Assembly (NCBI GenBank): GCA_945786985.1
Contig: CALZGC010000039.1
Location: forward strand, 495 to 64,494
DNA from: an uncultured Nitrospirota bacterium
Lineage (GTDB): Bacteria > CG2-30-53-67
Length of the DNA: 64,000 bases
Direction of reading: 5' to 3'
Position 1 is the first letter of the stretch; the number at the start of each line of letters is the position of its first letter. Under the pieces are notes generated by a model, which saw only the letters and a list, made by a program, of their open reading frames with translations, ran no database searches and had not been told where the DNA came from. Positions 14,623 to 63,083 of the stretch are shown here, piece by piece. The position numbers and the translations under genes were made by a program.

Positions 14623-15258
14623 TCAGGGATAGGAAGACAGTAAGCGGTTGATTTTATTAATACTTGCCGCCATCTCCTTGCCGCTGACAGGCTGTGACAC
14701 ATGAAATCGTCCCGACGTGTCGAGATCCATGATTCCGGCCGCCAAAACCATGCGGACAGCCCGGTAATAACGATGGCCCTGCGGAAGATCGGTCGGTGCC
14801 CGCCCGGAAGAAGGTCGTTCCTCACGGTTGACGTTCATCCGCTCCAGGATCCCGGTCAGCACCTCTGCGGCTTCGCCCCTGGTAATCGGCCGGTCCGGCT
14901 CGAACCGATGGTTCGCGGGCACCGAGATGAGCTGGCGCTGAACAGCCGACAGAATCTCCCGGCGGGCCCAGTGCTCAGCAATGTCTACCACTACCGGGAA
15001 ATCTTCGGAGACCGGCATCCCGCCGATGGGAAGTTCCCTCACGAGCAGAACCGCCAACCCGGAGCGCGTCAACTCACGAATCTCCGAAACCGGTGGCAGT
15101 TCTTCCGGCCAGCGCTCCGGAATGGAAACCTGGGCCGGCCGGGGCAGCACCTCCGGCGGCGGCACCGAAACGGGGCGCATGCAAGCTGCAAGCATCATCA
15201 GGGCCCAGAGGCAGGATAGCCCGGATATTGCATGAGTGCATCTATTACGAGGCCGCAT
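14623..15258 (-). CDS. lipoprotein with SLH-like repeats (hypothetical)
   Basis: Lipobox LMMLAAC; two segments resembling S-layer-homology motifs (FEPDRPITRGEAAEVL, FHVSQPVSGKEMAASI). Its start codon and signal-peptide n-region are encoded inside repeat copy A. Confidence 0.5.
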   Translation of the reverse strand: MRPRNRCTHAISGLSCLWALMMLAACMRPVSVPPPEVLPRPAQVSIPERWPEELPPVSEIRELTRSGLAVLLVRELPIGGMPVSEDFPVVVDIAEHWARREILSAVQRQLISVPANHRFEPDRPITRGEAAEVLTGILERMNVNREERPSSGRAPTDLPQGHRYYRAVRMVLAAGIMDLDTSGRFHVSQPVSGKEMAASINKINRLLSSYP

Positions 15259-15313
15259 ACGGCAGCTTCTACGATCTCTCATCACGATCCCTTATAGAAT
15301 ATCCGGACTAGTC
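15217..15313. repeat. MITE-like dispersed inverted-repeat element, copy A (~97 bp)
   Basis: TAGCCCGGATATTGCATGAGTGCATCTATTACGAGGC...CTCTCATCACGATC...ATATCCGGACTAG. Its 5' 27-mer matches copy B at 25/27; the ends are mutually inverted. Confidence 0.6.
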
Positions 15314-15423
15314 CGAGATATCCACAGTGCTTCTGCAAATCGCGTCTTCCCATGGGGACACAATTGGTTGGCGTAACGCAACCCGGAGCGGCAGCAGAAT
15401 TCTATCGGGATGCCGGCAACAAG

Positions 15424-17019
15424 TCAAGAAAAGCGCTTGGCCGTGACGGAAGGGAATTGGGATGCATCGGTGTGCGGCAAAAACATGGCGGCATTTAGCA
15501 GGGGCATGAAATCGCCGTCGACGTTCAGCTCCACGTAGGTCACACGCCGGCTGATCTCTTCGAGTTCCCGTCGTTTTGCATTTGAGAGCAGACAGAGACA
15601 GGCGCCCACGCCGGCACTGTTATGGAGCGCGCGGTAACGAGCCAGGGGAATATCGGGAACCATCCCGATGCTTATGGCCTTTTCAGGGTCGATATAGGCA
15701 CCGAACGTTCCCGCGACGAAAAAATACTCCAGATCGTGGAAGGAAAGCCCCGCCTGGCGCGTCATGACAGTCAGCGCCGTGTACATGGCAGCCTTGGTGC
15801 GAAGCAGATTATCCAGATCGAGCTGGGTCAAGTCGATGGGCGTCCCGGTGCCGCTCTGATCCGCAGGGACCAGCCGATACGCCGTGTGGCCATCCCGTTC
15901 CACAACGCCTTGCGCCCCGATGACAATCTTTCCCCGTTCATCAATCACACCGCTCAGGAAGAGCTCGGCCATCAGATCGATGAGGCCCGATCCGCAGATC
16001 CCTCTGGGGGGGATACGCCCGATGGTGGACCAGGTGGGCCGGAGAGTCTTGCGGTCCATCCGCACCTGATCGATGGCCCCTGGCGCCGCCCGCATCCCGC
16101 AGCCAACGACTCCGCCCTCCAGGGCCGGACCGGCGGCGCCGGCCGCCACCGTCAGCCAGTGCCGATTCCCGAGAACGATCTCGGCATTGGTCCCCACATC
16201 CACGAGCACCGAGAACTTCTCGGCGCGGTGCATCTGCGACACCAGAATGCCGGCCAGCGCGTCCCCGCCGGCGTAACTGCCCACACTGGGAAGGGCATAG
16301 AACACTGCATTTTCATGGACCTCCAAATCGAAATCGCGGGCGGGACAAATCTGCAGGCGATTGACGACGGGACTGTAGGGCTCCCGGCAGAGACGGTGGG
16401 TAGAAAACCCGCAGAAGAGATGCACCATGGTCGTATTCCCGGCCGCGGCCACTGCGTAGACGTGCCGCCGGTCGATACCATTCTTCTGCAGCAGCTTTGC
16501 AAGGGCCCCGTTGATCGCCTGAATCAACACGGTCTGAAGCTCAGCCGCTCCCTCCTCTCTCTCACAATAGTGTATACGGCTCAGGATATCCTCCCCGAAG
16601 CGAACCTGGGGATTCTCGGCGGTCGACTCATCGAGAACGACTCCCCGGTGCAAGTCGAGGAGGTAGAAGACCAGATTGGTCGAACCGAGATCGACGGCCA
16701 GGGCAAAGTTCATCCCGACTTGGTTGCCGGCAGCCGCATCAATCACTTCCGTGCTGCTCTCCTTCACGGCCAGAGTCACTGTCAGCGGGCCGCGGCTTTC
16801 ATAAAGGACCTCCGACAAGTGCCGCACCATGCCCAAGGGCACAGAGGGGTTACGGACATCTGATTGCTTTTCGAGGAGATCCAGCACCCGATCAACGTCG
16901 CCCCGGTTGTCACGAAGACTGGGCAGCGGAACCTCCAGGAAGACCTTGCGCACCAGAGGATCCAACGCATCCCGTGCCAGGAGTTGTCTTGAGTCTTTCG
17001 GGTCAGAGAAGGTCACCAC
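15424..17019 (-). CDS. ASKHA-domain protein (DUF4445, RACo C-terminal-like ATPase without ferredoxin domain)
   Basis: 531 aa with acetate/sugar-kinase fold phosphate motifs (AVDLGSTNLVFYL, VDVGTNAEIVLG, CGSGLIDL) typical of the corrinoid-activase C-terminal domain family. Confidence 0.7.
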   Translation of the reverse strand: MVTFSDPKDSRQLLARDALDPLVRKVFLEVPLPSLRDNRGDVDRVLDLLEKQSDVRNPSVPLGMVRHLSEVLYESRGPLTVTLAVKESSTEVIDAAAGNQVGMNFALAVDLGSTNLVFYLLDLHRGVVLDESTAENPQVRFGEDILSRIHYCEREEGAAELQTVLIQAINGALAKLLQKNGIDRRHVYAVAAAGNTTMVHLFCGFSTHRLCREPYSPVVNRLQICPARDFDLEVHENAVFYALPSVGSYAGGDALAGILVSQMHRAEKFSVLVDVGTNAEIVLGNRHWLTVAAGAAGPALEGGVVGCGMRAAPGAIDQVRMDRKTLRPTWSTIGRIPPRGICGSGLIDLMAELFLSGVIDERGKIVIGAQGVVERDGHTAYRLVPADQSGTGTPIDLTQLDLDNLLRTKAAMYTALTVMTRQAGLSFHDLEYFFVAGTFGAYIDPEKAISIGMVPDIPLARYRALHNSAGVGACLCLLSNAKRRELEEISRRVTYVELNVDGDFMPLLNAAMFLPHTDASQFPSVTAKRFS

Positions 17020-32610: not shown

Positions 32611-32639
32611 TTGACACGTTTGAACCTGCATGATAAACT
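32611..32639 (+). promoter_or_regulatory. candidate sigma-70-type promoter for the NHL-lipoprotein operon
   Basis: TTGACA-N17-TAAACT, ~80 nt upstream of ATG 32716. Confidence 0.3.
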
Positions 32640-32715
32640 TGAATATATTCAAAAGGTTAGCTTGTCAGGAAAGTGCCCAGATCTTTCAGCATCATTCCAA
32701 TTGGAGACAGAGAAG

Positions 32716-35169
32716 ATGATGGCTTCGTATGCAAGGAACGCCGCGTGCCGACGAATCGTACTCACCAGCCTCCTTGGCTGCTGTATGTCGCTATTCCTGG
32801 GGATAGGCTGTGCCCCTGTGCAGAAGAAACTGGGCACCAGTTTCTACCCGCCGCCGCCGCAGCCGCCCAAGATACAGTTTCTCGCACGCGTCGCTTCATC
32901 CAAGGATGTGGTACCGACGAAGCGATTTCAGAGCTTTGTCATCGGTGAGGAGCCGCCCAACCGCTTCATCAAGCCCTACGGTGTGGAGGCGCAGAACGGC
33001 ATCATCTATGTCTGCGATATGCGGCGCGCCGCCGTCGCAGAGATCGATATCGTCGACCACAAGTTCCAGTGGCTGCGCAACGAAGGCGCCGGAAAACTTC
33101 GAAAGCCGATCAACCTCGCGGTCGACAAGGACGGGACGAAATATGTGGCCGATGTCGCCCTCGGCCAGGTCATGGTTTACGACAAAGCCAATCGCTTCAA
33201 GAAAGCCTTCGGCACGGAAGGTCAGTTCAAGCCGGTGGATGTGGCGGTCTTCGAGGAGAGGCTCTACGTTCTCGATATCCAAGACCATCAAGTGGAGATC
33301 CTGAACAAGAACACCGGCGCCGTTGTAGGAACCATCGGCAGCCCCGCCTTGGAGGAGGGGCAGCTCGCAAAGCCGTCAAACATCTATCTAGACAAGGACG
33401 GCAATATCTATGTCACGAACACGCTGAACTGCCGCATCGAGAAATATGATGATCAAGGCAATCACCTGCTCTCCGTGGGTGAGTGCGGGGATGCGATCGG
33501 CTCTTTCATCCGGCCCAAGGGCGTTGCCGTCGACGACAAAGGTTTCATCTATGTCGTCGATGCGGCCTTTGAAAACGTGCAGATCTTCTCGCCCCAGGGG
33601 GAAACCGCTCTTTTCTTCGGCGGTCCAGGCGATGCCTCTGTCCCGGGAGCGCTCTGGCTCCCGGCCTCCATGGATATTACTTATGACAAGAGTCTGATCG
33701 CCTCCCTGAATGAAGTCCGCAACCCGGATTTTGATATCGAGTATCTGATTCTCGTCATGAGTCAGTTCGGTCCCCCCTACCTGAACATTTATGGATTTGG
33801 TGAACCTCGGGCGGCGTCACCTCTGGCCAGAGGCGACGCGGACGCCTACGAGCCTGAAACGGGCAAGCTCGAATCCGCCTCCGTACCGAGGGAGGTGGTA
33901 CCGGAAGAACCGGTCACACGAGCAACGGAAGAGGAAGCGGCACCCGAAAAGCTGGAGCCGCCCCCAACGGCGCTCGACAAGCCGGAAGTTGCCGCCGTCT
34001 CCAGCCCGTCCGCAGTGGATCAGGCGCCGGCCGTTGAACCGACCCGGCCTCCGGAGCCGAACGAAACAGATAAAGAAGAGAAGGAACTCGTTTCACTGAT
34101 CGAACATTGGAGAAACTGCTGGGATACCCTGGACTTCAATTGTTACATTGATCATTACGGCAGCGAATTCAAACACGGCAAGATGGATCTCGCCGGGTGG
34201 CGAGCTTACAAACGCTCCATTTTCAGGGAAAAGAAGCCCGTCGAGGTACAACTGGAGGACATCCGGATCTCCGGATCGGGGTCGAACCGGCGGGCGCGCT
34301 TCATGCAGACCTTTCGCTCCGGTCGGCTCAGCGACTACGGAGAGAAGGCGCTGACCCTAAGCCGGGAAGGAAACACCTGGAAGATCATCGGAGAAGAGTG
34401 GACAGCCGCCGAAAAAGTCGCGAAGGCGACCGTACCCGAAGCCGGCGATGCAAACCGTTCTGAGATTCTGAGTTTCATCGAGGGGTGGAGAAACTGCTGG
34501 GAAAGCTTGGACTTCAATTGCTACATCGATCATTACGGCAGCGGATTCAAACACGGCAAGATGGATCTCGCCGAGTGGCGAACCCATAAACGCTCCGTTT
34601 TCAAGAAAAAGAAGCGCGTAGAGGTTCAACTGGAGGACATCCGGATCTCCGGATCGGGATCGAACCGGCGGGCGCGCTTCATGCAGACCTTTCGCTCCGG
34701 TCGGCTCAGCGACTACGGAGAGAAGTTACTGACCCTCCGTCGAGAAGGCGACGCTTGGAAGATCATCGCAGAGAAGTGGACAGCCGCGGAAAGAGTCGCG
34801 AAGCCGACCGTACCCGAAGCTGGCGATGCAGACAGTTCTGAGATTCTGAGCTTCATCGAGGGGTGGAAGAACTGCTGGGAGTCTCTTGATTTCGACTGCT
34901 ATATGGAATATTACGGACAGGGCTTTCGGCATCATAAGATGGGCCTGGCTGATTGGAAAGATCACCGGCGCGGCGTCTTCTCCCGACAGAAGAACGTCCG
35001 TCTCACGTTCGAGGACATGGAGATCTCCGGGTTCGGATCAGATCGCAACATCCGTTTCCTGCAGACCTTCCAATCGGGACGATACACCGATTTCGGTGAA
35101 AAAAGATTGACCCTTCGCAAGGAAGGAGAAATCTGGAAGATCATCCGGGAAGAATGGAAGGCCCGGTGA
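32716..35169 (+). CDS. NHL-repeat beta-propeller lipoprotein with a Pro/Glu-rich linker and three tandem copies of an uncharacterised ~126-aa domain
   Basis: Lipobox LFLGIGC. Six YVxD-type NHL blades (IIYVCD, KYVADV, LYVLD, IYVTN, IYVVDA...). Linker. Three repeats: ILSFIEGWRNCWESLDFNCYIDHYGSGFKHGKMDLAEW...SGRLSDYGEK...WKII. Confidence 0.85.
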   Translation: MMASYARNAACRRIVLTSLLGCCMSLFLGIGCAPVQKKLGTSFYPPPPQPPKIQFLARVASSKDVVPTKRFQSFVIGEEPPNRFIKPYGVEAQNGIIYVCDMRRAAVAEIDIVDHKFQWLRNEGAGKLRKPINLAVDKDGTKYVADVALGQVMVYDKANRFKKAFGTEGQFKPVDVAVFEERLYVLDIQDHQVEILNKNTGAVVGTIGSPALEEGQLAKPSNIYLDKDGNIYVTNTLNCRIEKYDDQGNHLLSVGECGDAIGSFIRPKGVAVDDKGFIYVVDAAFENVQIFSPQGETALFFGGPGDASVPGALWLPASMDITYDKSLIASLNEVRNPDFDIEYLILVMSQFGPPYLNIYGFGEPRAASPLARGDADAYEPETGKLESASVPREVVPEEPVTRATEEEAAPEKLEPPPTALDKPEVAAVSSPSAVDQAPAVEPTRPPEPNETDKEEKELVSLIEHWRNCWDTLDFNCYIDHYGSEFKHGKMDLAGWRAYKRSIFREKKPVEVQLEDIRISGSGSNRRARFMQTFRSGRLSDYGEKALTLSREGNTWKIIGEEWTAAEKVAKATVPEAGDANRSEILSFIEGWRNCWESLDFNCYIDHYGSGFKHGKMDLAEWRTHKRSVFKKKKRVEVQLEDIRISGSGSNRRARFMQTFRSGRLSDYGEKLLTLRREGDAWKIIAEKWTAAERVAKPTVPEAGDADSSEILSFIEGWKNCWESLDFDCYMEYYGQGFRHHKMGLADWKDHRRGVFSRQKNVRLTFEDMEISGFGSDRNIRFLQTFQSGRYTDFGEKRLTLRKEGEIWKIIREEWKAR
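34084..35166 (+). repeat. three tandem 378-bp coding repeats (about 98% DNA identity between copies 1 and 2)
   Basis: An approximately 100-bp stretch CTGGAGGACATCCGGATCTCCGGATCGGG(G/A)TCGAACCGGCGGGCGCGCTTCATGCAGACCTTTCGCTCCGGTCGGCTCAGCGACTACGGAGAGAAG recurs at ~34252 and ~34630 with a single internal mismatch (period 378). Confidence 0.9.
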
Positions 35170-42387: not shown

Positions 42388-42438
42388 CCTGGGTATCGCC
42401 TTAGAAGTGTTCGCCCCGTCTCTGCGCTTACCGCGAAT

Positions 42439-42477
42439 CTCGTAATAGATTGACTCATGCAATAGACGGGCTAGTAC
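42439..42477. repeat. MITE-like element, copy C (solo terminal inverted repeat, opposite orientation)
   Basis: CGTAATAGATTGACTCATGCAATAGACGGGCTAGTAC is the reverse-complement of the ATTGCATGAGTNAATCTATTACG terminus (22/23) and matches the flanking CCCGG-CTAG motif of copy B's 3' end. Confidence 0.5.
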
Positions 42478-43001
42478 TTGTCTGTATGGCAGGCAATGCA
42501 AAGCTCCGTGGAGGAGTGCCCCACGGTCAGTTCCCTCGAGGCGGTGCACTCTGCAGCGGGATCCAGCGCCATGGCCGCCGTCTGCATCCCGGTCGACAGA
42601 TCACTCTTAAGTCTGTGACAGGAAACGCAGCTCACCTTCCCATCAACCAGACGGATATTCTTGTCCAGCAGCAGCCTCGGCCGATACCCCCTTGGGTCCC
42701 GCATGGCATAGTGATCATAGGACATGCCCACCGGATGATTGACCGTCCGGGATCCGCTTATCTGGAAAGGGGCGTCGGCATCTTTCAATGAGATACTTGT
42801 TGCTGTGGCCCCATTGTGGCATCCCAGGCAGTCACTCGCCGTACTGTCAGGAGGTACTGCAGCCGCACTGACGGCGAAGGCTTGCACATCGGCACCGAAC
42901 ACGAAGTTCCTGAACATCTCAGAGAGGCTTCCCGCCACCGCTGTGCGCGGTGCAACACAAATCAGAGAAAAGACCATCAGGAGTGTACAAAACCTCTGCA
43001 T
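42471..43001 (-). CDS. trihaem c-type cytochrome
   Basis: Signal peptide MQRFCTLLMVFSLICVAPRTAVAG. CLGCH, CVSCH, CIACH. Confidence 0.8.
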   Translation of the reverse strand: MQRFCTLLMVFSLICVAPRTAVAGSLSEMFRNFVFGADVQAFAVSAAAVPPDSTASDCLGCHNGATATSISLKDADAPFQISGSRTVNHPVGMSYDHYAMRDPRGYRPRLLLDKNIRLVDGKVSCVSCHRLKSDLSTGMQTAAMALDPAAECTASRELTVGHSSTELCIACHTDKY

Positions 43002-43490
43002 AGCCAACCCTCCTCCTGTCATGCCCGAGGGGCAATTACCACACGGTATCGGTTCTAAAAGAATGGATTGAAAAAGAGGATGGGCCGCCGACGTCAGAGA
43101 GCCTGCCTGAAGACCCATACGTTCATCCGTCTCTTCGGCAGCCCCTCTACCATCACCTTGCGGCCCCAGGCAGGTGGCTTTGCGTCCGATCCCTTTCGGG
43201 AAAGGTTGCCTTTGTCACAAAACTAATCAGTACATCGGGAGAAAGGCAAAATACTTTAGAATAAACTGGTTCCCCCGATGGGTCTGGCCGGCTTGCGAAC
43301 GTATTCGGTGGCAAACCTGACCTCTCCACGAAGCCTTTCTAATGTTCTTACCACTGAATCCTTTGGCCCGCAACCGATGGGCGGACAAGATCTGCACCAT
43401 GGCGTCCGGCATGGCCGCCGACCTTTTCGCACGGGCCAGTGTGGGAAAAACATTGTGTTTCTATCATAACCTAAGAACTTGTTTATGCGG

Positions 43491-43552: not shown

Positions 43553-45688
43553 TCAGGGTTGCGGTAACCATGAATTGTCATGCACGTGACAGTCGGTGCA
43601 ATCTTGACCATCAAAGTGGGCGGGCGCGTCCCCATTGTATCGATGGAAAAGGGTCTGGGTATGGCAGGTCTCACAGATATTCTCATTGAAGGGCGGCCCA
43701 TCGGCAAAAGAGCCCTCTCCTTCCCGACTCGTGAAAACAATCAGACTGCCGTCGATGACACTCTGGTCCGTGGTCTCTCGCACCGCCTTAATGTTGTCCC
43801 CGACCTCGAACATAGGGTTGTGACAATCGACACACCCAACCTCGTAGTTGTATTTCCCGGTGCCACTGACAGCGCTGGTGTGGGGCTTTCGTGTCCCGTG
43901 GCACTTCATGCACTCTTCACTCGGGATCTTGGCAGAAAAAATGAGATTGTCACTTACATCCTCCACGTGACAGAACCCGCAGTTGCTATTGAAAAAGTTT
44001 GTGTTGTGCGGCGGCTGTGCCTGTCCCGCCGTAGGCAGAAATCCATCACGATGGAGGTGACACTGGGTGCACTGCTGGCCATCGAAGTGCGACTGACCGC
44101 CCGGTGCGGTGCCGTCGCTCTGATGATGATTGGTCCGGGTGTGGCAGGTCTCGCAGATGTTCTCCTCATGGGGCGGACCGTCCGCAAAGGAGCCTATCCC
44201 CGTGGGGGCCGTAAACTGCACAAAGTTCTGTATGGACGCGCCCGTGGCCTCGTTGTCAAAACAGATCGTCCGCCGGACATACTGCCCATAGGTGGTTCCA
44301 AACTTATTGTTCTGCTCCTGGGTGTGCGGATTGTGGCAGGTCACACAGTCGGCGCCCCAGTTCCCGTATTTGCTCCCCACGACGTCGGTCCCGTGGGTCC
44401 GAACGTTGGGGGCCGAGCCGAATCCGAACGGATAGGACTCGGGATACTGGACCTTGAATATCCCGTTGAGTGGATCCGAGGTATCTTCCGGGTCCGCGTG
44501 GCACCGCTGGCACTGATACCGCAAATCGTTGAAGAAATCATTTAGATCGTGGCATTTCCCGCAGAAGAGTTCAGTGTTGTCGGGGTGCACAGAGCCATCC
44601 GGGTTGAGCAGCAGCCCGAAATGGGGCGTATCCCGGGGCGTGGTCACGGTCTCGCAGCTCGGCCCACCGCAGTCGTCAACATCCGTCTCGTCAGCCAAGT
44701 TGTCACAGTCGTTGTCGATCCCGTCGTCACAGACCTCCAGAAAGCCGGGGCTGCGGTTGGGGTCGGCGTCGTCACAGTCTGGTGCGCACTTGGCCGCCCC
44801 GTCGCCATCGGCGTCGACATCCGTTGAGAAGTCGGCCCGACCGTCACAGTTGCTGTCCTTGCCGTCACAGATTTTTGGGGCACCGGGAAAGACCTGGGGG
44901 TCCGTGTCATCACAGTCGACGGGACCGCAGACACCGCCCAACGTGGAAAAACCGTCCCCGTCGGTGTCGGCCCCGGCGCAGGCCTCGCAATCGGGGTCGG
45001 AGATACAGGTTGCGTCATCACAGTCGATCGACCCGTCGCAGTTATTGTCGATACCGTCCGTACAGAACTCCGCGGCCGCTGGATTCACAGCAGCATTGGT
45101 ATCGTCACAGTCGGTACCGCCGCAGAAAGAAGCCGTATCACCGTCGCCGTCGGCGTCGGGGCAGATACATCCGGCTTCGTCCGTTGTGCCATCACAGTTG
45201 TTATCCTTGCCGTCGCCGCAGAGCTCGCTGGCCCCCGGATTCACCGTGGCACTGAAGTCATCGCAATCACCCGGCGTGTCGCAAATCTTAAATCCGTCTC
45301 CGTCGCTATCGCGCTCCTCCGCGGGCATGCCGGACGTACAATCGTTGTCCTTGCCGTCACAGATTTCGGAATTCCCGGGAAAGCGGGCCGGATCGCTGTC
45401 ATCGCAGTCGCCCGCGCACCGCGGCACACCGTCGCCGTCAGCGTCGACGTCGGTGCCGAAAGTCCGACCGTCGCAATTGGTGTCTCTCCCGTCGCAGATC
45501 TCGGGCACCCCTGGTCGAATATCGGGATCCGTATCGTCACAGTCGGGGCCCACACAGTCAATACCGCTCCCGTATCCGTCCCCGTCATTGTCCACGCATT
45601 GGGCCTGAACGTTGGAGCTGCCCAGGATCAACAGAACTCCCAGCAAGACAGATAAGAACATCCCCATCGGGCACTTCTTGGAAATCAT
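43553..45688 (-). CDS. secreted 10-haem c-type cytochrome with N-terminal Myxococcus-type putative metal-binding motif repeats (Asp/Cys-rich, Ca-binding-like)
   Basis: Signal peptide. More than five DADGDG...DCDD...PG..E.CDG.DN.CDG repeats. Then CGKCH, CQRCH, CVTCH, CETCH, CTQCH, CGFCH, CMKCH, CVDCH, CETCH, CTDCH. Confidence 0.88.
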   Translation of the reverse strand: MISKKCPMGMFLSVLLGVLLILGSSNVQAQCVDNDGDGYGSGIDCVGPDCDDTDPDIRPGVPEICDGRDTNCDGRTFGTDVDADGDGVPRCAGDCDDSDPARFPGNSEICDGKDNDCTSGMPAEERDSDGDGFKICDTPGDCDDFSATVNPGASELCGDGKDNNCDGTTDEAGCICPDADGDGDTASFCGGTDCDDTNAAVNPAAAEFCTDGIDNNCDGSIDCDDATCISDPDCEACAGADTDGDGFSTLGGVCGPVDCDDTDPQVFPGAPKICDGKDSNCDGRADFSTDVDADGDGAAKCAPDCDDADPNRSPGFLEVCDDGIDNDCDNLADETDVDDCGGPSCETVTTPRDTPHFGLLLNPDGSVHPDNTELFCGKCHDLNDFFNDLRYQCQRCHADPEDTSDPLNGIFKVQYPESYPFGFGSAPNVRTHGTDVVGSKYGNWGADCVTCHNPHTQEQNNKFGTTYGQYVRRTICFDNEATGASIQNFVQFTAPTGIGSFADGPPHEENICETCHTRTNHHQSDGTAPGGQSHFDGQQCTQCHLHRDGFLPTAGQAQPPHNTNFFNSNCGFCHVEDVSDNLIFSAKIPSEECMKCHGTRKPHTSAVSGTGKYNYEVGCVDCHNPMFEVGDNIKAVRETTDQSVIDGSLIVFTSREGEGSFADGPPFNENICETCHTQTLFHRYNGDAPAHFDGQDCTDCHVHDNSWLPQP

Positions 45689-45915: not shown

Positions 45916-46103
45916 CCTTAACCCGGAGATTGCATGAGTAAATCTATTACGAGGCTGGATAGTCTGCCACATGCGGCGTTACAGAAGATCTTCTGACTTC
46001 AATATGTTTACAGCCAGAAGATCTTTTGCGCCCTGCCTGTAGCGCATCCAAAACCTCTGGGGCCTCTCATGACGATCAACTCATGCAATATCCGGGCTAA
46101 GTG
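45916..46103. repeat. MITE-like element, copy B (full length ~188 bp, ~27-bp terminal inverted repeats)
   Basis: 5' CCTTAACCCGGAGATTGCATGAGTAAATCTATTACGAGGC ... 3' CAACTCATGCAATATCCGGGCTAAGTG. The termini are reverse-complements of each other. Confidence 0.6.
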
Positions 46104-46202: not shown

Positions 46203-46233
46203 CAAAATCCCGGGCCACAAGGCGTGGCCCGGG
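46203..46233 (-). terminator. candidate Rho-independent terminator
   Basis: Minus-strand perfect 10-bp stem CCCGGGCCAC-GCCUU-GUGGCCCGGG followed by AUUUUG. Confidence 0.45.
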
Positions 46234-46263
46234 ATCTTCAGTATAACCGCTGCGCTTCAAGTT

Positions 46264-46524
46264 TTAAAACGAGCTTGCTCCATGTCCGTGGCAGTTTCCG
46301 GCCATACAACCGGTACTTTTGTTACCTCCCATTTGATCGGGATGGCAGGTTGAGCAGAAAGACCGGCCGTTTGTCGTTGCGTCACTGTTACTCTGTGAGA
46401 CATCAAGGACCCTGACGAGATCGGGGTCTTCACCTGGAATCGACCAATCCGGCGTGAGCGGCGTCGATCCGTTTTTGGAGTAGATAATCGGCTTCAAATT
46501 GGCCAGGTTTGTGTAAACCATACC
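46264..46524 (-). CDS. small Cys/His-rich ORF (86 aa) with strong RBS; possibly the C-terminal remnant of a cytochrome gene
   Basis: GGAGGTG-N6-ATG. MVYTNLANLKPIIY...SFCSTCHPDQMGGNKSTGCMAGNCHGHGASSF. No signal peptide. The C-terminal G.C...CHG resembles the C-termini of the 14- and 12-haem cytochromes. Confidence 0.3.
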   Translation of the reverse strand, partial: GMVYTNLANLKPIIYSKNGSTPLTPDWSIPGEDPDLVRVLDVSQSNSDATTNGRSFCSTCHPDQMGGNKSTGCMAGNCHGHGASSF

Positions 46525-47122: not shown

Positions 47123-49891
47123 CTACTGCTCGTGGCACGTGGTGCAGTCGCGGAAGTCCTCGAGAATGTACGCCCCCAGGTCAGGATCCCACACGAAACT
47201 GTGGCAGTTCAGGCAGTCGTAGGTGGCATCCGGCACTCCGTCGCCGTTCGCATCAGGTTTCGGCACGATACTGTCCGGTATGATTGGCGTTCCCACGCGC
47301 TGGTGGTGCAGGTTGGGTATCGACGCACTGGTGAGGAGAAAGCCCTCCGAATGAGGATGACAGGTTGTACAAGTATTGCCGTCTAAGTGACTCTGCCCAC
47401 CGGGCGCCGTCCCATCTGACTGATGGTGGTTCGTGGCGCTGTGGCAGGTTTCACAGACATTCTCCTCGTGAGGCGGTCCGTCCGCAAAGGACCCCGGCCC
47501 GGAACGTGCCGTGAAGTCAATAACGCTGCCCGGAATGACGCTTCCCGGAACCGTCGATCTGACCAGTTTCAAGTTCGTCTGTTCAAACATCGGGTTATGG
47601 CAGTCGACACACTGGTTGGTATAGCTATAAGTGCCCGACCCGTTCACATCGCTGTGCGTCAGGACATTCGGCGCCGCCGGGAAGCCGTCTTTGAGGACGC
47701 CCGTTGGCGCATGACACTGCTCGCACTTGGAATCGGGAATGGGAGAACTGAAATCTGAAGTGCTGACGTGACAGTAATCACAGTTGTTCAGAAACTCCTG
47801 CGTGTCGTGCGGGGCCGCCGGTGTACCTCCTGTCGGTGCGAACCCATCGGCATGGGAATGACAGGCGGTGCAGGCAAGTCCGTTATTGTGATCCTGCCCA
47901 CCCGGTGCCGTCCCATCGCTCTGTTGGTGGTTGGTACGGGTATGGCAGGTATTGCAAATGTTCTCATCGTAAGGCGCGCCATCGGCAAAGGAGCCCGGCC
48001 CTGTGGGCGCGGTGAACTCCACAAAATTCTCCACCGACCCGCCCGTCGTCTGATTATCGAAACAGATGGTCCGTTTGATCAGCTTGCCGTAGGTGGTGCC
48101 GAACTTGTTGTTCTGCTCCTGGGTATGGGGGTTATGGCAGTTCACGCAGTCCGCCCCCCAGGTGCCATATTTGTTCCCGAGGATCCCCGATGAGTGGGTC
48201 ACGACATTCGCAGCCGAGCCGAACCCGAACGGATAAGCATCGGGGTACTGGGCTTTGAGGACACCGTTGAGCGGATCGGAGGTATCGTTCGGATCGGCGT
48301 GACACCGCTGGCACTGATAGCGGGTGTCATCGAGAAAATTGGTCAGATTGTGGCACTTGCCGCAGAACAGCGCATTGTTGTCCGGATGAATCGTGCCGTC
48401 CGGATTGAGAAGCTGACCCAGATGGGGCTCATCCCTCGGCGTGGTCACTGTACCACAGGTCGGAGGACCGCAGTCTTCTAAATCCGCCGCATCGGTCAGG
48501 TTGTCGCAATCGTTGTCGATCCCGTCGGTGCAGACTTCCAGATTGTCAGGATAGCGCTTCGGATTATTGTCATCACAGTCGGAGGCGCAGCGGGCCACCC
48601 CGTCGCCGTCTGCATCGACATCGGAGGAGAAATCGAGCCGGCTGTCACAATTGTTGTCTTTACCATCGCAGATGCGAAGCGCACCGGGGTAGACAGTCGG
48701 ATCGGTGTCGTCACAATCTCCGGCAGCCACGGCCACTCCGTCACCATCATTGTCACCTGCGACCGCGACGCAACTACTGTCCGCTGCATCGGTCATGCCG
48801 TCAAAGTCATTGTTGCAACCGTCACTGCAGGTCGGACTCCCCACCGGCCCTTCCAGCCCGATGAGGGAAGCGCCCACACAGTCACCGTTGGAGCAGGTGT
48901 CGCCGCTCGTACACGGGTCGCTGTCGTCGCACGCGCCGATGGCAAAGGTACAGTCGTTGTTGCAGCAAAGACCGCCGTCGCACTGCTCATCGGCCTCCAC
49001 GATGCCGTTGCCGCAAACGCCGACCGCATCACACCTGTCCGTAGCTTCGTTACAAGTCGTGCCGCCGGTACAGGGGTCGCCGGCAGAAACACAGGCGCCC
49101 GAGCCGTTGCAGCTCTCCGTGCCGTCACAGAAAACTCCGTTGGAACTGCAGGCCGTAGCGGTGCTCGAAAAAGTGCAGTCCGGATCGCAGCACTCGCCGC
49201 CATCACACTGCTCGCCGGTCTCCACGGTCCCGTTGCCACAAACGGCGCCCGTATCGCAGGTATCGGTCGATTCGATACAGTTCGTCCCGCCCGGACAGGG
49301 GTTGCCGGCGGAAACACAGCCGCCCGAGCCGTTGCAGCTCTCCGCGCCGTCACAGAAAAGACCGTTGTCCGTGCAGGCCATGCTGGGCATGGCAAAGGTA
49401 CAGTTGCTATTACAGCAAACGCCCCCATCACACTGCTCGCCACTCTCGACAATCCCGTTTCCGCACACCGGACCGCCGCCACCGACGCAGCCCCCCAGAT
49501 CCGCTGTGTCGACCCGGCGGTCGCAATCGTTGTCTTGGCCGTCGTCGCAGATCTCCTGATTGCCGGGAAAGTTTGACGCGTCGTTGTCATCGCAGTCCCC
49601 CCCACATCGCGGCACGCCGTCGCCGTCGGCATCCACATCGGTGCGGAAATCAAGGCGACCGTCGCAGTTAGTGTCGAGGCCGTCGCAGATACGGATCGCA
49701 CCCGGAAAGACGTTGGCGTTTGTGTCGTCGCAATCGACACCCGGGTTGGGACAGTCCGCTGCTCCGGCAACCCCGTAATCGTCGCCGTCAGCATCCACGC
49801 AGGCCGTCGCCGTGGGACTCGCCAGCGCAACGACCAGAAAACTAAAGAAAAAAACCGATAGGAAGGTTTTTAACGACCGTGTCTCTCTCAT
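47123..49891 (-). CDS. secreted 12-haem c-type cytochrome with putative metal-binding motif repeats and three Myxococcus cysteine-rich repeats (CGNGxVExGEQCDGG)
   Basis: Start MRETRSL after a GGAGGGG RBS; signal peptide. DADGDG/DCDD repeats at both ends of the N-region. Three ~75-aa CGNG...EQCDGG repeats. Twelve CxxCH. About 75% identical to the 43553 paralogue across the haem region. Confidence 0.88.
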   Translation of the reverse strand: MRETRSLKTFLSVFFFSFLVVALASPTATACVDADGDDYGVAGAADCPNPGVDCDDTNANVFPGAIRICDGLDTNCDGRLDFRTDVDADGDGVPRCGGDCDDNDASNFPGNQEICDDGQDNDCDRRVDTADLGGCVGGGGPVCGNGIVESGEQCDGGVCCNSNCTFAMPSMACTDNGLFCDGAESCNGSGGCVSAGNPCPGGTNCIESTDTCDTGAVCGNGTVETGEQCDGGECCDPDCTFSSTATACSSNGVFCDGTESCNGSGACVSAGDPCTGGTTCNEATDRCDAVGVCGNGIVEADEQCDGGLCCNNDCTFAIGACDDSDPCTSGDTCSNGDCVGASLIGLEGPVGSPTCSDGCNNDFDGMTDAADSSCVAVAGDNDGDGVAVAAGDCDDTDPTVYPGALRICDGKDNNCDSRLDFSSDVDADGDGVARCASDCDDNNPKRYPDNLEVCTDGIDNDCDNLTDAADLEDCGPPTCGTVTTPRDEPHLGQLLNPDGTIHPDNNALFCGKCHNLTNFLDDTRYQCQRCHADPNDTSDPLNGVLKAQYPDAYPFGFGSAANVVTHSSGILGNKYGTWGADCVNCHNPHTQEQNNKFGTTYGKLIKRTICFDNQTTGGSVENFVEFTAPTGPGSFADGAPYDENICNTCHTRTNHQQSDGTAPGGQDHNNGLACTACHSHADGFAPTGGTPAAPHDTQEFLNNCDYCHVSTSDFSSPIPDSKCEQCHAPTGVLKDGFPAAPNVLTHSDVNGSGTYSYTNQCVDCHNPMFEQTNLKLVRSTVPGSVIPGSVIDFTARSGPGSFADGPPHEENVCETCHSATNHHQSDGTAPGGQSHLDGNTCTTCHPHSEGFLLTSASIPNLHHQRVGTPIIPDSIVPKPDANGDGVPDATYDCLNCHSFVWDPDLGAYILEDFRDCTTCHEQ
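48860..49466 (-). repeat. tandem ~225-bp coding repeats (Myxococcus cysteine-rich repeat units) inside the giant cytochrome gene
   Basis: Near-identical DNA at ~49060–49150 and ~49290–49380 (…GCCGTTGCAGCTCTCCG(T/C)GCCGTCACAGAAAA…). The antisense ORF 48705..49559 displays the periodicity. Confidence 0.7.
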
Positions 49892-60508: not shown

Positions 60509-61462
60509 ATGCAGAACGGACAGGTACTGATTCTCGGAGCGACAGGTTTTGTGGGAAAGCACCTTGTCAACGAGCTCAACGACAAGAAGATACCCGTGCG
60601 CGCCTTGGTTCGGGATCGCGCTAAGCTGGACGGGCTCTGGGCCGGGAGTCCCGGCGTTGAGCTGATCGAGGGAGACCTGCTGGACCCGGGCAGTCTGCAC
60701 GATGCACTCCAGGGTGTCGAAGTCGCTTATTATCTGGTCCACTCCATGGGCGGCACCAGCCTCTTCGGCAATCTCGAGTATGCCGAAAAGGACAAGCGGG
60801 CCGCCCGCAACTTCGCGGACGCGGCCGAGGCGGCCGGTCTGAAACGGGTCATCTACCTCGGCGCGCTGGGAGAAGCCGCGGAGGATCTCTCGGAGCACCT
60901 GCACAGCCGTGCGCAGGTCGCGCAAATCCTCACGTCGGCCAACGGCACGTCGGCCACCATCCTGCGGGCCGCCATCATCATCGGGGCCGGTGGAGCATCG
61001 TTCGAAATGCTCCGCTATCTGGTCGAAAGGCTGCCGGTCATGGGGTGCCCCCGCTGGATAGACACACGCATTCAACCCATCGCCATCCAGGACGTCCGGG
61101 CCTATCTTGCGGGCTGCCTCGCCCATCCGGAAACGGCCGGGCAGACCTACGATATTGGCGGACCGGAAGTCATGACCTACCGGGAGATGATGCAGGCCTA
61201 TGCCCAGGCCCGGGGCCTTTTGCCCCGACTGATCTTCCGGGTCCCTCTGTTAACGCCGCTCCTTTCCGCCTACTGGGTCGACCTGGTGACGCCCGTTCCC
61301 TCGGGCGTGGCCCACCCACTGATCGAGGGGATGAAGAACGAGGTCGTCTGCCGGGAGGACCGCATCCGAGACATCATCCCCATCGAACCGACTCCGTTCA
61401 GGGAGGCGGTCCGCATCGCCGTGGCGCAAGAAACCTCGGGCCCCGGCGTCAGGGGGTGTTGA
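60509..61462 (+). CDS. NAD(P)-binding NmrA/atypical-SDR-family protein
   Basis: VLILGATGFVGKHLV Rossmann motif. Start set at MQNGQVLI. Confidence 0.8.
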   Translation: MQNGQVLILGATGFVGKHLVNELNDKKIPVRALVRDRAKLDGLWAGSPGVELIEGDLLDPGSLHDALQGVEVAYYLVHSMGGTSLFGNLEYAEKDKRAARNFADAAEAAGLKRVIYLGALGEAAEDLSEHLHSRAQVAQILTSANGTSATILRAAIIIGAGGASFEMLRYLVERLPVMGCPRWIDTRIQPIAIQDVRAYLAGCLAHPETAGQTYDIGGPEVMTYREMMQAYAQARGLLPRLIFRVPLLTPLLSAYWVDLVTPVPSGVAHPLIEGMKNEVVCREDRIRDIIPIEPTPFREAVRIAVAQETSGPGVRGC

Positions 61463-61942
61463 ATGGAGGTCGCCGCTTCGGTTATCATCCATGCACCCCT
61501 GTCGATCGTCTGGCAGACTTTTACCGACGTCGCCTGCTGGCAGGACTGGAATGAAGTGATCGAGAACCGCACGGCCGCGCCGCAGAGTGCGCTTGCCGAA
61601 GGAAGCCGGATGCAGTTCTGCATTCGCCCCTTTGCCTTTCCCATTGCCTTTGAGCCCGAGGTCCAGGAGATCGTTCCCTATGAACGGGTCGTCTGGACCG
61701 GCGGCCGATACTGGATTCATGCCCGGCACGAGTTTCTTTTCGAGGAGCTGAACGGCGCCGTTCGGGTGACCAGCCGTGAAGTCTTCAACGGACTGCCCCT
61801 CGTCTTCGCCGGGTTCGTTTTTCCGAAGAGGCGGATCCGGAAAATGGTCGTCACCCTTTTGGACGAACTCAAGGGTGCCGCCGAAAGCCGCCTCCCCGCC
61901 AATAGGCGCGACGCCACCCCCGAGGAGGAGATCCTGCAATGA
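61463..61942 (+). CDS. SRPBCC (START/polyketide-cyclase-like) family protein
   Basis: 159 aa with the alpha/beta-grip pattern (SIVWQTFTDVACWQDWN...). ATGA-type coupling with flanking genes. Confidence 0.65.
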   Translation: MEVAASVIIHAPLSIVWQTFTDVACWQDWNEVIENRTAAPQSALAEGSRMQFCIRPFAFPIAFEPEVQEIVPYERVVWTGGRYWIHARHEFLFEELNGAVRVTSREVFNGLPLVFAGFVFPKRRIRKMVVTLLDELKGAAESRLPANRRDATPEEEILQ

Positions 61943-62889
61943 GCGAGCTAATCCGCGTCGGCATCAGCACTTGTCTGCTCGGCGAGCAGGTCCGTTATGA
62001 CGGCGGACACAAACTGGATCATTATCTGAAGGAGACGCTGGGCCGGTTCGTGGAGTGGGTGCCGGTCTGTCCGGAGGTGGAATACGGGCTGCCGACGCCG
62101 CGGGAGGCGATGCGCCTGGTGGGTGACCCGGAAAACCCCCGACTGGTCACCACGCGCACCGGGGTGGACCATACGGCGGGGATGCAGCGCTGGGCGCGCT
62201 CACGTGTCGACGCCCTGACCGGGGAGGATCTCTGCGGCTTTGTCTTCAAGAGCAAGTCGCCCAGTTCGGGGATGGCCCGGGTCAAAGTCTATCCCGAATC
62301 GGGCATCCCCGCCAACAGGGGGGTGGGGATCTTCGCCCGTGCCTTCATGGAGCGCTTCCCGCTGCTGCCCGTAGAAGAGGACGGACGCCTCCACGATCCG
62401 CGACTTCGGGAGAATTTCATCGAGCGCCTCTTCGTCTACCGCCGCTGGGCCGCATTTGTCAGAGACGACGGATCCCTGAAAGGTCTGATTGATTTTCATG
62501 CCGATCACAAACTGCTGATCATGTCACACAGCCCGAAACATCTGCGGGTGCTGGGAAAGCTGGTGGCCGACGGCAAGGGAATGCGCCGGACCAAGCTTCT
62601 CGAAACGTACACCCGGACGCTCATGGAGGGCCTGGGGCTTCTGGCGACCGTCCGCAAGAACACCAACGTGCTGCAGCACATGCTGGGCTACTTCAAGAAG
62701 GAGCTCTCACCCGACGAAAAGCAGGAACTTCTGGATGTGATTGAAGAGTATCACCGTAGCCTCGTGCCCCTGCTGGTGCCCGTGGTCCTCTTTCAGCACT
62801 ATGTCCGCAAGTACGACCAGCCTTATCTGAAACGGCAGCACTACCTCAATCCCCACGCCGCAGAGCTGATGCTCCGCAATCACGTGTGA
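61939..62889 (+). CDS. DUF523 (YbgA N-terminal-like) plus DUF1722 fusion protein
   Basis: IRVGISTCLLGEQVRYDGGHK...VPVCPEV (DUF523) and C-terminal DUF1722. Convergent with a photolyase gene, as with ybgA–phr in enterics. Confidence 0.75.
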   Translation: MSELIRVGISTCLLGEQVRYDGGHKLDHYLKETLGRFVEWVPVCPEVEYGLPTPREAMRLVGDPENPRLVTTRTGVDHTAGMQRWARSRVDALTGEDLCGFVFKSKSPSSGMARVKVYPESGIPANRGVGIFARAFMERFPLLPVEEDGRLHDPRLRENFIERLFVYRRWAAFVRDDGSLKGLIDFHADHKLLIMSHSPKHLRVLGKLVADGKGMRRTKLLETYTRTLMEGLGLLATVRKNTNVLQHMLGYFKKELSPDEKQELLDVIEEYHRSLVPLLVPVVLFQHYVRKYDQPYLKRQHYLNPHAAELMLRNHV

Positions 62890-62995
62890 ACGGCCCACTC
62901 AGAGACCTGCTGGAATCGGCCCACATGGATCTAGCGGGTCACCGCCACCAGGACGAGGGCCGACGTGGGCGAGCAGACAAAGTCCTTGAGATCGG

Positions 62996-63083
62996 ATATT
63001 GAATGAGTCAATCTATTGCAACGCCGGACTTGTCGCTGCGTAGCATTCTGCGAAGACGGATCGCCTGCCACATACGCCGTCAC
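62996..63083. repeat. MITE-like element, degenerate copy D
   Basis: ATATTGAATGAGTCAATCTATTGCAACGCC...TCGCCTGCCACATACGCCGTCAC parallels copy B (ATTGCATGAGTAAATCTATTACGAGGC...TAGTCTGCCACATGCGGCGTTAC). Confidence 0.4.

Follow-up and report, generated by a model that had tools for sequence, protein, structure and literature searches.

Background

Classical bacterial MITEs, such as Correia, Chunjie and QMITE1/2, are shorter than 500 bp, carry terminal inverted repeats (TIRs) of about 20-30 bp and flanking direct repeats, and occur in tens to hundreds of copies (PMC10969869). They exist in full-length, deleted and relic forms, lie mostly between genes, and give very stable hairpin transcripts. Some mobile palindromes instead sit within protein-coding genes, to which they add translated sequence; examples are RPEs (palindromic elements of Rickettsia) and intragenic copies of ERIC and BOX (PMC10969869). 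Among insertion sequences, IS5 inserts at YTAR with a 4-bp duplication, as measured in E. coli (PMC5009759), and IS701 also yields an exact, conserved 4-bp duplication (PMC2266710). In the literature on MITEs and IS families, we found no MITE family described from Nitrospirota.

Here, we analysed 64,000 nucleotides from an uncultured Nitrospirota bacterium (the window), in which an original prediction had placed one short terminus at four sites. We conclude with high confidence that these sites belong to a MITE family, probably mobilised in trans by IS5-like transposition, one copy of which most likely rescued an SLH lipoprotein gene by supplying a start codon.

Four window repeats belong to one MITE family

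A pattern scan of the window with CCGGANATTGCATGAGTNAATCTATTACGAGG (at most 3 mismatches) matched 15221-15252(+), 42438-42469(-) and 45923-45954(+). A shorter core added 46074-46089(-), the second arm of the proposed 188-bp element, and 62998-63013(+), the degenerate copy. The terminus is thus present at all four sites, on the strands predicted, and had no match in 100 shuffled controls (chance expectation 0). A repeat scan of the window agreed (direct family D13; inverted pairs I1, I2, I3 and I5). With nhmmer profiles built on full-length relatives, we recovered copy B (E=9e-44), copy D (3e-7), copy C (4e-5) and both arms of copy A (left 3e-9, right 2e-6), and this search of the window gave no fifth copy. 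The copies and their flanks are as follows.

15220-15307 (+): copy A, short-subfamily MITE, 88 bp, inside the part of the SLH lipoprotein gene (- strand) that encodes the signal peptide
15216-15219 and 15308-15311 (+): copy A flanks, ATAG and CTAG
42388-42470 (-): copy C, old decayed short MITE, about 83 bp, one arm well preserved
42384-42387 and 42471-42474: copy C flanks, CTAG and CTAG
45922-46096 (+): copy B, full-length MITE, 175 bp, nhmmer match over the whole 175-position model
45918-45921 and 46097-46100 (+): copy B flanks, TTAA and CTAA
62991 to about 63088 (+): copy D, truncated left-arm fragment, about 100 bp, by nhmmer; no right arm

These boundaries revise those first proposed. The inverted ends of the 188-bp element (45916-46103) are real, but the element is copy B with its 175 bp; likewise, the 97-bp element (15217-15313) exists as the 88 bp of copy A, and the degenerate copy (62996-63083) as the left-arm fragment D. 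The supposed solo end at 42439-42477 is instead the decayed short element C, bounded by CTAG on both sides.

The family was surveyed by pattern scans over public genomes and metagenomes. It was found at 8 loci in two Nitrospirota MAGs (7 in CAYUBU01 and 1 in CAMYMF01) and at at least 120 metagenome loci; the CAJICE01 assembly supplies 43 of the 80 metagenome loci among the matches listed. The loci listed held 280 TIR matches, 111 paired elements and 107 unique complete copies, together with many relics, and the copies listed fell into size classes of about 175, 195, 88 and 210 bp. The consensus is 175 bp long with perfect TIRs of 18 bp (CCCGGATATTGCATGAGT), and is non-coding, with stops in all six frames and no open frame. 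Across 74 copies, most consensus positions are at least 90% conserved. The element is richer in A+T than its host (G+C 47% vs 59%), is palindromic over its entire length and folds into one long hairpin. Deletion derivatives (the 88-bp short form and left-arm-only forms) and nested variants are present. Some copies host a separate perfect hairpin module, nested within them.

Copy B shares 90% identity with the consensus and has one deletion (10 bp) and one insertion (9 bp) relative to it; its TIR pair corresponds to inverted pair I3. The GGCC/GGCA symmetry outside its flanks is not common to the family. Structure prediction, a check proposed at the outset, folded copy B as one hairpin with an energy of -89.8 kcal/mol (z=-10). 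In copy C, the preserved arm spans 42438-42473, while about 12/20 positions of the opposite arm CCTGGGTATCGCCTTAGAAG agree with the TIR. Its flanks contain the stops of two convergent genes, a SurA-like gene (+, TAG 42385-42387) and a small cytochrome gene (-, 42471-42473). Relics 42 nt shorter were found at the orthologous site in L135 and L136, indicating that the insertion is older than the divergence of these genomes. Copy D has a 34-nt left-arm insert CTTGTCACGGCGTAGCATTTTGCGAAGACGGATAAG and was aligned with ten copies of the same subtype; it sits between convergent genes for a 2-thiouracil desulfurase (ends 62889) and a photolyase (stop at 63080).

Taken together, these sequence comparisons support the view that one small non-coding MITE accounts for all four repeats, whether as copies or as relics. 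The sequence family is new, and the kind of element is already known. The window copies are an old, decaying set, in which B is near-intact, A is short, C is a relic and D is a fragment.

Flanks and target duplication

YTAR tetranucleotides flank the copies on both sides, with oriented counts of 25 for TTAA/TTAA, 18 for CTAG/CTAG and 7 for CTAA/CTAA; these three make up 50/105 perfect duplications. The inverted arrangement CTAA/TTAG was absent among copies with scored flanks. In all TAA-flanked copies (32/32), the outer-left and inner-right bases are identical (T/T 25, C/C 7, mixed 0). These patterns support reading the YTAR flanks as direct 4-bp duplications of the target.

IS630 has a CTAG target and duplicates TA. 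It is conceivable, but unlikely, that the elements belong to the IS630/Tc1-mariner type of MITE, as do Correia, RUP and ERIC, with only the central TA duplicated. The element proper would then end R...Y (GCCCGG...CCGGGC), and the outer bases would reflect a CTAG/TTAA target preference. This would suit the central TA, which is nearly invariant on both sides (left 98-103/107, right 92-103/107). It would also allow for 11 independent copies with TTAG at the left arm and CTAG at the right arm and for three copies of the CTAG/CTAA class, which vary only at the outermost positions; the lengths of sites with and without the element do not discriminate between the models. However, the 32/32 match is predicted by a 4-bp duplication and not by free outer bases, the seven CTAA/CTAA copies would need non-complementary termini (A...C), and the outer target bases would have to depend on the terminus type. 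We favour the 4-bp duplication, while noting that the TTAG/CTAG class is not explained by a simple 4-bp duplication plus random mutation.

The window has no transposase gene, as had been noted. We also found none beside family copies in the fetched loci, solo ends included, and no autonomous element carrying the family ends in about 820 kb of these loci, so the proposed search for a cognate transposase elsewhere yielded no candidate, and the target duplication is the sole basis for both mobilisation in trans and the transposase family. Our best guess is an IS5-like partner, because IS5 shares YTAR insertion and the 4-bp direct duplication. The ends of E. coli IS5 are unlike the termini of the Nitrospirota element (CCCGG start; CCC...GGG). 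Relatives of IS701 or of IS1380, which has CC ends and 4-5-bp duplications, are possible partners as well; since both duplicate similar lengths, the target alone leaves the transposase family unfixed. In the proposed mechanism, a DDE transposase encoded elsewhere would bind both element ends, excise the element and reinsert it at YTAR (TTAA, CTAG, CTAA), where a staggered cut of 4 bp would produce the 4-bp direct duplication.

Mobility and gene avoidance

The window and L130 both carry an element at site A, which in L130 is a full-length copy in the same orientation; the orthologous loci L131, L132 and L133 are empty there. Two other L130 insertions are missing from the window, and dS between these genomes is only about 0.1. 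At one of them, flanked by CTAA, removal of the element and 4 bp leaves a site colinear with the outgroup L132. At the other, past the SLH stop, the flanks match poorly (CTAG/TTGG), and the empty counterpart, CCCTGATTG, is without TA. These filled and empty orthologous sites indicate that the family is mobile, and we infer that it is active at present. None of 95 excised sites had an ORF of at least 100 codons on each side, compared to 40% of random positions; insertions within genes are largely purged.

The further copies, perfect 18-bp TIRs, YTAR direct repeats and orthologous empty sites bear out the prediction of MITE-like, non-autonomous elements. Its second option was REP-like regulatory repeats; we considered REP/REPIN-like palindromes spread by RAYT (IS200-like Y1) and host-selected regulatory palindromes (terminators, protein-binding sites). 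The entire element is indeed a long hairpin, to which some copies add the nested hairpin module; convergent genes flank copies C and D, a setting in which a hairpin might work at 3' ends, and four fetched loci (L063, L067, L085, L115) hold a RAYT-like ORF. However, these ORFs are kilobases away from the nearest TIR, and the copies bear YTAR direct repeats, while no target duplications are known from REP/REPIN spread. Copies also differ in presence between genomes at dS of about 0.1 and occur in every gene context, even within a coding region. The adjoining 711-aa MopE/cytochrome gene has its predicted promoter at 45786-45758 (-), and copy B is outside this promoter, about 130 bp upstream; a whole-window Rfam scan matched none of the four sites to an RNA family. 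We consider a REP-like or regulatory origin very improbable and retain the MITE.

Copy A in the SLH lipoprotein gene

In copy A, the left arm shows no mismatch over 18 bp and the right arm shows 5; the internal junction of this copy, GAGGCCGCATACGGCAGCTTCTACGA, is identical in the unrelated locus L021. The following features describe the start of the SLH gene.

15399-15427 (-): predicted sigma-70-type SLH promoter, TTGACT, 17 nt, TAGAAT; scan 10/12
15353-15351 (-): ATG, severed ancestral SLH start, opens a 23-codon leader ORF
15285 (GTG), 15282 (ATG) and 15258 (ATG) (-): element-encoded SLH starts, from sequence and translation

In uninterrupted orthologues, the ATG aligned with 15353-15351 opens an intact signal peptide. 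Here, the leader ORF enters the MITE and ends at TGA 15284-15282, in a frame that differs from that of the SLH gene body, and ATG 15282 overlaps this stop as TGATG. The gene body extends down to 14623, and the deposited call starts at 15258 (P0001, 211 aa). At the level of sequence, this supports the prediction that copy A supplies the ATG and n-region of the lipoprotein, and extends it: the element inserted where the ancestral signal peptide was encoded and cut off the ancestral ATG.

By landing here, copy A split the original ATG from the gene body. Translation could then start at ATG 15282, by termination-reinitiation where the truncated leader ORF overlaps it as TGATG, or at ATG 15258, and an Arg-rich reading frame of the element would take the place of the n-region. 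The gene most likely survives via a start codon within the element, which is presumably used.

It is possible, if somewhat short of probable, that copy A merely inactivated the gene, that the in-element ATGs are fortuitous and that the ORF is intact only because little time has passed since insertion. SLH dN/dS is 0.59 between the two insertion-bearing genomes (17 non-synonymous, 10 synonymous) and about 0.18 elsewhere (0.17-0.20 in comparisons with empty-site orthologues), a rise of about 3-fold; four neighbouring genes gave 0.07-0.23. The excess had a Fisher p=0.005 vs the pooled neighbours and p=0.07 vs RACo alone. In addition, the ATG-bearing variant CCGCAT is normal for short-form copies (10/124 left arms), so selection at this site is not needed, and the element RNA is predicted to form a hairpin around the start codons (-38.5 kcal/mol).

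Against mere inactivation, the mature region (186 codons) has no stop or frameshift in either insertion-bearing genome, and dN/dS is still below 1. The leader ATG is conserved, and the promoter columns are invariant in the alignment of all five orthologous loci, filled and empty. The full-length copy of L130 owes the same ATG to a G-to-C change unique among full-length copies, and it has also lost its in-frame TGA. Furthermore, the new N-terminus MRPRNRCTHAISGLSCLWALMMLAAC has a length, a positive charge and a lipobox that match those of the ancestral MGRRHLQKHPGYLGRHCLWALILLAGC, and the old lipobox spacing is reproduced. Survival via an element-encoded start is therefore our preferred reading; given the raised dN/dS, the gene may nevertheless be decaying.

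Comparison with known systems

All the classical MITE traits listed above for Correia (Neisseria), Chunjie (Geobacter uraniireducens) and QMITE1/2 (Coxiella) are seen in the Nitrospirota family, which differs from them in its own sequence, its host phylum and its YTAR 4-bp target. With IS5 of E. coli, its family and derived MITEs, it shares the YTAR target and the 4-bp direct duplication (PMC5009759); both also have short TIRs and favour non-coding DNA. In contrast to IS5, no IS5-family or other transposase was found with the ends of the Nitrospirota element, and its recurrent TTAG/CTAG class is no known IS5 feature. PIF/Harbinger-Tourist/mPing is a eukaryotic parallel for IS5-type pairing.

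The element is ordinary in kind, except for copy A, which lies within the start of a lipoprotein gene and apparently gives it a start codon. In this it resembles RPEs and intragenic ERIC/BOX copies, as copy A is predicted to give the SLH lipoprotein its start codon and about 13-21 N-terminal residues. However, RPEs enter the gene body in frame and are read as internal peptides of the product, whereas copy A changes the frame and cuts off the original start, with a new start codon and signal-peptide n-region taking over from the old; and, unlike RPEs, most members of the Nitrospirota family avoid genes.

A family of palindromic elements at four sites

The original prediction placed a family of short inverted-repeat elements at four sites in the window, and this was borne out by a pattern scan with shuffled controls, a repeat search and a profile HMM. 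Scanning the window with the 32-nt terminus pattern (≤3 mismatches) gave matches at 15221-15252 (+), 42438-42469 (-) and 45923-45954 (+), and none were found across 100 dinucleotide-preserving shuffles. The 16-nt core additionally matched 46074-46089 (-), which is the other arm of the 188-bp copy B, and 62998-63013 (+), the degenerate copy D. The repeat search recovered the same direct family (D13) and the inverted pairs I1, I2, I3 and I5. A profile HMM, trained on full-length relatives of the element, picked up just these four sites in the window, with E-values of 9e-44 for copy B, 3e-9 and 2e-6 for the arms of copy A, 3e-7 for copy D and 4e-5 for copy C. In a whole-window scan against Rfam 15, nothing reached the gathering score on the four repeat sites, and the only families in the window were tRNA-Pro and the c-di-GMP-I riboswitch.

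Copies of the element in the window (flanks are the four bases left/right)
Copy A, 15220-15307: 88 bp, short subfamily, + strand flanks ATAG/CTAG
Copy B, 45922-46096: full length, 90% identical to the consensus, flanks TTAA/CTAA
Copy C, 42388-42470: decayed short element, flanks CTAG/CTAG
Copy D, 62991 to about 63088: left-arm fragment, subtype with a 34-nt insert

Aligning 74 full-length copies gave a consensus of 175 bp (CCCGGATATTGCATGAGTAAATCTATTACGAGGCCGGATAAGCTGCCACATGCGGCGTTGCAGAAAATTTCCTGACTTCGAAATATTTCAATATGTCTTCAGCCAGAAAATTTTCTGCGCCTTGCCTGTGGCGCTTCTACGGCCTCTCATGACGATCACTCATGCAATATCCGGG), with at least 90% conservation at most positions. Its ends are perfect 18-bp inverted repeats (CCCGGATATTGCATGAGT), so the expected terminal inverted repeats (TIRs) are present, and complementarity continues imperfectly inward of them. 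The arm pair of copy B (I3) covers 32 nt at 84% complementarity, the rest of the element is largely self-complementary, and structure prediction likewise folded copy B into a single hairpin (-89.8 kcal/mol, z = -10). The G+C content of the element is 47%, compared with 59% for the window. Stop codons occur in all six frames of the consensus, which leaves no coding capacity and speaks against a coding origin. Variants span 88 to about 350 bp.

Size classes of the element
About 170-179 bp: 54 copies
190-199 bp: 22 copies
80-89 bp: 10 copies
About 210 bp: 8 copies
About 350 bp: 3 copies

Copies in other genomes and metagenomes

In reverse complement, the window equals most of contig CAMYNS010000010.1 (GCA_947259695.1). 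The closest relatives of the window are Nitrospirota MAGs, and further copies were found in other Nitrospirota MAGs and in metagenomes. One exact-pattern scan of species-representative genomes identified 8 loci, 7 in the Nitrospirota MAG CAYUBU01 and 1 in CAMYMF01; these loci contain complete elements, about 175-220 bp long, that have the ends of the window family. One scan of metagenome contigs identified at least 120 loci; a single assembly, CAJICE01, accounted for 43 of the 80 metagenome loci among the matches listed. Family statistics were based on 129 loci (820 kb), which yielded 280 TIR matches and 111 paired elements, 107 of them unique once flanks were counted. The copies are dispersed and multiple, with four in the 64-kb window and seven loci in CAYUBU01. 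Several contigs in the data set terminate within a copy.

Two other repeats were observed in these contigs. A perfect 26-nt hairpin module (GGTGCCAGGCAGNNCTGCCTGGCACC) was found in 15 loci (L001 5933-5958; L003 588-613; L005 5063-5088 and 7019-7044; L006 2700-2725; and 10 more loci). In alignments it is nested within some copies of the element, at times twice, and it appears to be another palindromic repeat of smaller size; the window lacks it. The hairpin module GGTGCCAGGCAGGCCTGCCTGGCACC is present in relatives, and none was found in the window. On a contig classed as viral (L138 1-260, IMG/VR contig IMGVR_UViG_3300009537_000138), two tandem elements have the 18-bp ends of the family and a different core, and meet at a common TTAG junction (CTAA on the opposite strand). 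No transposase was found near these tandem elements or elsewhere in the viral-contig scan (L137, L138), and the match in L137 was dismissed as a chance match within a phage gene.

The elements are flanked by a four-base target duplication

We examined the four bases outside the CCCGG...CCGGG ends in 107 copies, and found YTAR on both sides. The second position was T in 98/107 and 103/107 copies, and the third was A in 103/107 and 92/107. Flank pairs were counted in 105 copies, all oriented to read left arm first.

Flank pairs of oriented copies (left/right)
TTAA/TTAA: 25 copies
CTAG/CTAG: 18 copies
TTAG/CTAG: 11 copies
CTAA/CTAA: 7 copies
CTAG/CTAA: 3 copies

The remaining pairs are scattered single changes. 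The proposed check for target-site duplications was therefore positive, with perfect 4-bp direct repeats in 50/105 oriented copies, including the seven asymmetric CTAA/CTAA pairs. The inverted arrangement CTAA/TTAG was absent among oriented copies; asymmetric tetramers were always direct. In TAA-flanked copies the outer-left and inner-right bases are always equal (32/32). This equality, together with the direct-only flanks, indicates a 4-bp staggered cut rather than a longer TIR or a TA-only duplication. An IS630/Tc1-mariner MITE of the Correia/RUP type, which duplicates TA only, is therefore unlikely, because the fourth base is co-duplicated in every one of these copies. A central TA alone leaves the flank correlations unaccounted for.

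The TTAG/CTAG class comprises 11 independent copies in which the difference is constant in position and side, and the asymmetric CTAA target shows a 7:1 bias toward one orientation (loci with either type include L005, L044, L055, L056, L076, L090, L099, L126 and others). Random mutation of a 4-bp duplication fails to explain either pattern. More speculatively, the TTAG/CTAG class may reflect hairpin-templated correction that extends the palindrome into the target duplication: the palindrome would extrude as a hairpin, the flanks would pair, and a G.T mispair would be corrected to G.C.

Filled and empty sites indicate mobility

Evidence for mobility comes from four comparisons of filled and empty orthologous sites. 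At site A the element is present in the window and in its close relative L130, between GGA|CTAG and CTA(T/A)|CCTGCC, and the site is uninterrupted in L131 (the CAMYMF01 contig), L132 and L133. Directly after the stop codon of the SLH lipoprotein gene, L130 carries a 131-bp copy with poorly matching flanks (CTAG/TTGG) that is missing from the window, L131 and L132. In the sigma-54/S30AE spacer, L130 carries a 184-bp copy (10306-10489) with perfect CTAA/CTAA flanks, and L130 becomes colinear with the outgroup L132 once the element and 4 bp are taken out. In this spacer (about 11044-11052) the window is free of elements; judged against the reconstructed empty site of L130 and against L132, it has an 11-nt deletion at the exact insertion point, which could be the footprint of an imprecise excision or a coincidence. 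At the 3' end of RACo, L131 carries an independent decayed copy (5753-5894, corresponding to about 15447 in the window) that is absent elsewhere. It precedes the RACo stop by 8 codons, altering the C-terminus (537 aa vs 531 aa). The RACo-SLH-LptC neighbourhood has received at least three separate insertions. Since dS between the window and L130 is only 0.07-0.13, copies were gained or lost recently.

Genes are avoided as insertion sites. Once the elements had been excised in silico, not one of the 95 sites had an ORF with at least 100 codons on each side, compared with 40% of random positions in the same loci; with at least 50 codons on each side, the values were 13/95 and 64%.

Copy A may provide a start codon for the SLH lipoprotein gene

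Copy A interrupts the signal-peptide coding region of the SLH gene, which lies on the minus strand. The unrelated locus L021 has the internal junction of copy A (GAGGCCGCATACGGCAGCTTCTACGA) as well, and five other short copies have one like it (GAGGCCGCATGTGGC...TTCTACGGCC). In empty-site orthologues the SLH gene opens with MGRRHLQKHPGYLGRHCLWALILLAGC|MRPVS..., a typical lipoprotein signal peptide. The predicted promoter, TTGACT-17-TAGAAT (window 15427-15399, -), is invariant, and the ancestral ATG (15353-15351) is retained in the window. Copy A splits the n-region from the h-region with a shift of frame, and the ORF read from the ancestral start is now 23 codons long and stops at a TGA within the element (15284-15282). 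This TGA overlaps an ATG at 15282-15280 (TGATG); that ATG, a second one at 15258 and the gene body all share one reading frame. In the deposited annotation the gene starts at 15258 (P0001), giving MRPRNRCTHAISGLSCLWALMMLAAC|MRPVS, which is unchanged in length and has a positively charged n-region followed by the original h-region and lipobox. These frames and the deposited start agree with the original prediction that copy A supplies the ATG and n-region of the lipoprotein, and copy A represents an insertion into the coding region, after which the gene may have come to use a start inside the element. Translation would begin at ATG 15282, with termination on the truncated ancestral leader ORF and reinitiation at the UGAUG overlap, or alternatively at ATG 15258.

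L130 carries a full-length copy (5805-5979) that matches copy A in site and orientation, and both of its TIRs have derived bases in common with copy A. This copy carries the ATG through a G-to-C change found in no other full-length copy, and it is open in the SLH frame throughout its length because TGC stands in place of the consensus in-frame TGA. In L130 the SLH gene was called from MMLGGC, leaving no signal peptide.

Whether the gene was rescued by the element-borne start is, in our judgement, a roughly balanced question, and exaptation of copy A, with the element giving a working start codon and a positively charged n-region, is a possible but tentative reading. Early pseudogenisation of the SLH gene is somewhat less likely than not. 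Two observations speak against a fully successful rescue. For the mature protein, dN/dS between the window and L130 is 0.59 (17 non-synonymous, 10 synonymous), whereas it is 0.17-0.20 when empty-site orthologues are involved and 0.07-0.23 for four neighbouring genes, again between the window and L130 (Fisher p=0.005 vs pooled neighbours, p=0.07 vs RACo alone). A hairpin of -38.5 kcal/mol formed by the element around the start codons is also possible. If rescue by the element-borne start is true, a selfish palindromic repeat rebuilt a secretion signal.

Copies B, C and D and the cytochrome region

Copy B is bracketed on one side by a hairpin resembling a terminator (about 46225-46265, -) and on the other by the promoter predicted for the 711-aa MopE/multihaem cytochrome gene (45786-45758, -). 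Because this sole good promoter match falls outside the element, we rejected copy B as the source of the cytochrome gene promoter. No empty orthologue of copy B was found; L135, the only orthologous locus, has an unalignable intergenic region, and a protein search with the 711-aa neighbour gave no relative above 66% identity. The GC-rich hairpin (CCCGGGCCAC...GTGGCCCGGG) is strong and followed by ATTTTG on the minus strand. It looks like the terminator of an upstream 191-aa cytochrome-like ORF; a simple scan made no call.

Copy C had been described as a solo end; it is a decayed short element. Its two CTAG flanks hold the stop codons of both convergent genes. Site C is old, since L135 and L136 carry orthologous relics at the same place, 42 nt shorter; the SurA-like proteins of these two contigs share about 80% identity with that of the window. 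Copy D sits between the convergent 2-thiouracil desulfurase and photolyase genes.

Other features were observed in the cytochrome region. A c-di-GMP-I riboswitch (Rfam RF01051, 59.8 bits; 43134-43220, -) lies within the MopE/cytochrome cluster and immediately precedes a small multihaem cytochrome gene, which spans either 42471-43118 or 42471-43001 (-). The 711-aa and 971-aa MopE/cytochrome genes (43650-45550 and 47340-49830) have many repeated modules in common (D2-D10, D12), which indicates paralogues built of repeated Cu-binding_MopE and haem-binding units. Three tandem 378-bp repeats at 34099-35154 (88% and 62% identity to the first), inside an 852-aa ORF (32611-35169), indicate a repeated protein domain.

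Search for an autonomous partner

No transposase was found in the window by Pfam scans and precomputed annotations covering essentially all large ORFs, in line with the original prediction. We searched all loci for a partner with an 18-mer (≤3 mismatches) and a 12-mer (≤2 mismatches) as queries. Among the 129 loci, no TIR pair 400-3500 bp apart enclosed a transposase-like ORF; the pairs at this spacing were merely juxtaposed independent copies. The ORFs inside 18 solo ends looked like ordinary housekeeping genes by inspection. Multi-copy ORFs among the loci were sensor kinases, response regulators and ABC ATPases, together with a RAYT-like ORF unlinked to TIRs. MAG assemblies often miss IS elements.

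The IS200/RAYT-like ORF (motif ...YVLMSNHIHLL...) begins at about 928 (+) in L063 and is common to L067, L085 and L115, and in all four contigs it lies kilobases from the MITE ends. The original prediction had offered REP-like repeats as an alternative. This was not sustained, as the direct target duplications and the distance of the RAYT-like ORFs from the TIRs argue strongly against RAYT-mobilised REP/REPINs, which are not known to leave target duplications and go with a single-copy RAYT gene that the repeats flank.

Since no partner was found, only a putative transposase family can be read from the target duplication. IS1380 elements have CC ends and duplications of 4-5 bp. An exact, conserved 4-bp duplication is made by IS701 as well (PMC2266710), and E. 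coli IS5 makes exactly this 4-bp YTAR duplication (PMC5009759). Our best guess is an IS5-like partner.

Significance and comparison with known systems

Prokaryotic MITEs are shorter than 500 bp and have TIRs, direct repeats, stable hairpin transcripts, and deleted and relic members (PMC10969869). The partner apart, all of these structural features were found here. Our literature searches returned no described Nitrospirota MITE family. Taken together, this is a genuine and apparently undescribed MITE family in uncultured Nitrospirota, for which consensus, ends, target and subfamilies are now defined. Its repeats break MAG assemblies and mislead gene callers, the SLH gene having been given three different starts in three assemblies. 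Copies can also mark strain-level differences: within 12 kb, a pair of genomes separated by a dS of about 0.1 shows two insertion differences. The SLH gene offers a compact natural case in which a mobile element has taken the place of a gene's start and signal-peptide n-region. Nothing here changes the understanding of how MITEs work.

The family resembles IS5 in its target choice (YTAR, 4 bp), and we do not claim derivation from IS5. Copy A is like the RPEs of Rickettsia in its coding-region position. However, RPEs add an internal in-frame peptide, whereas copy A replaces the start codon.
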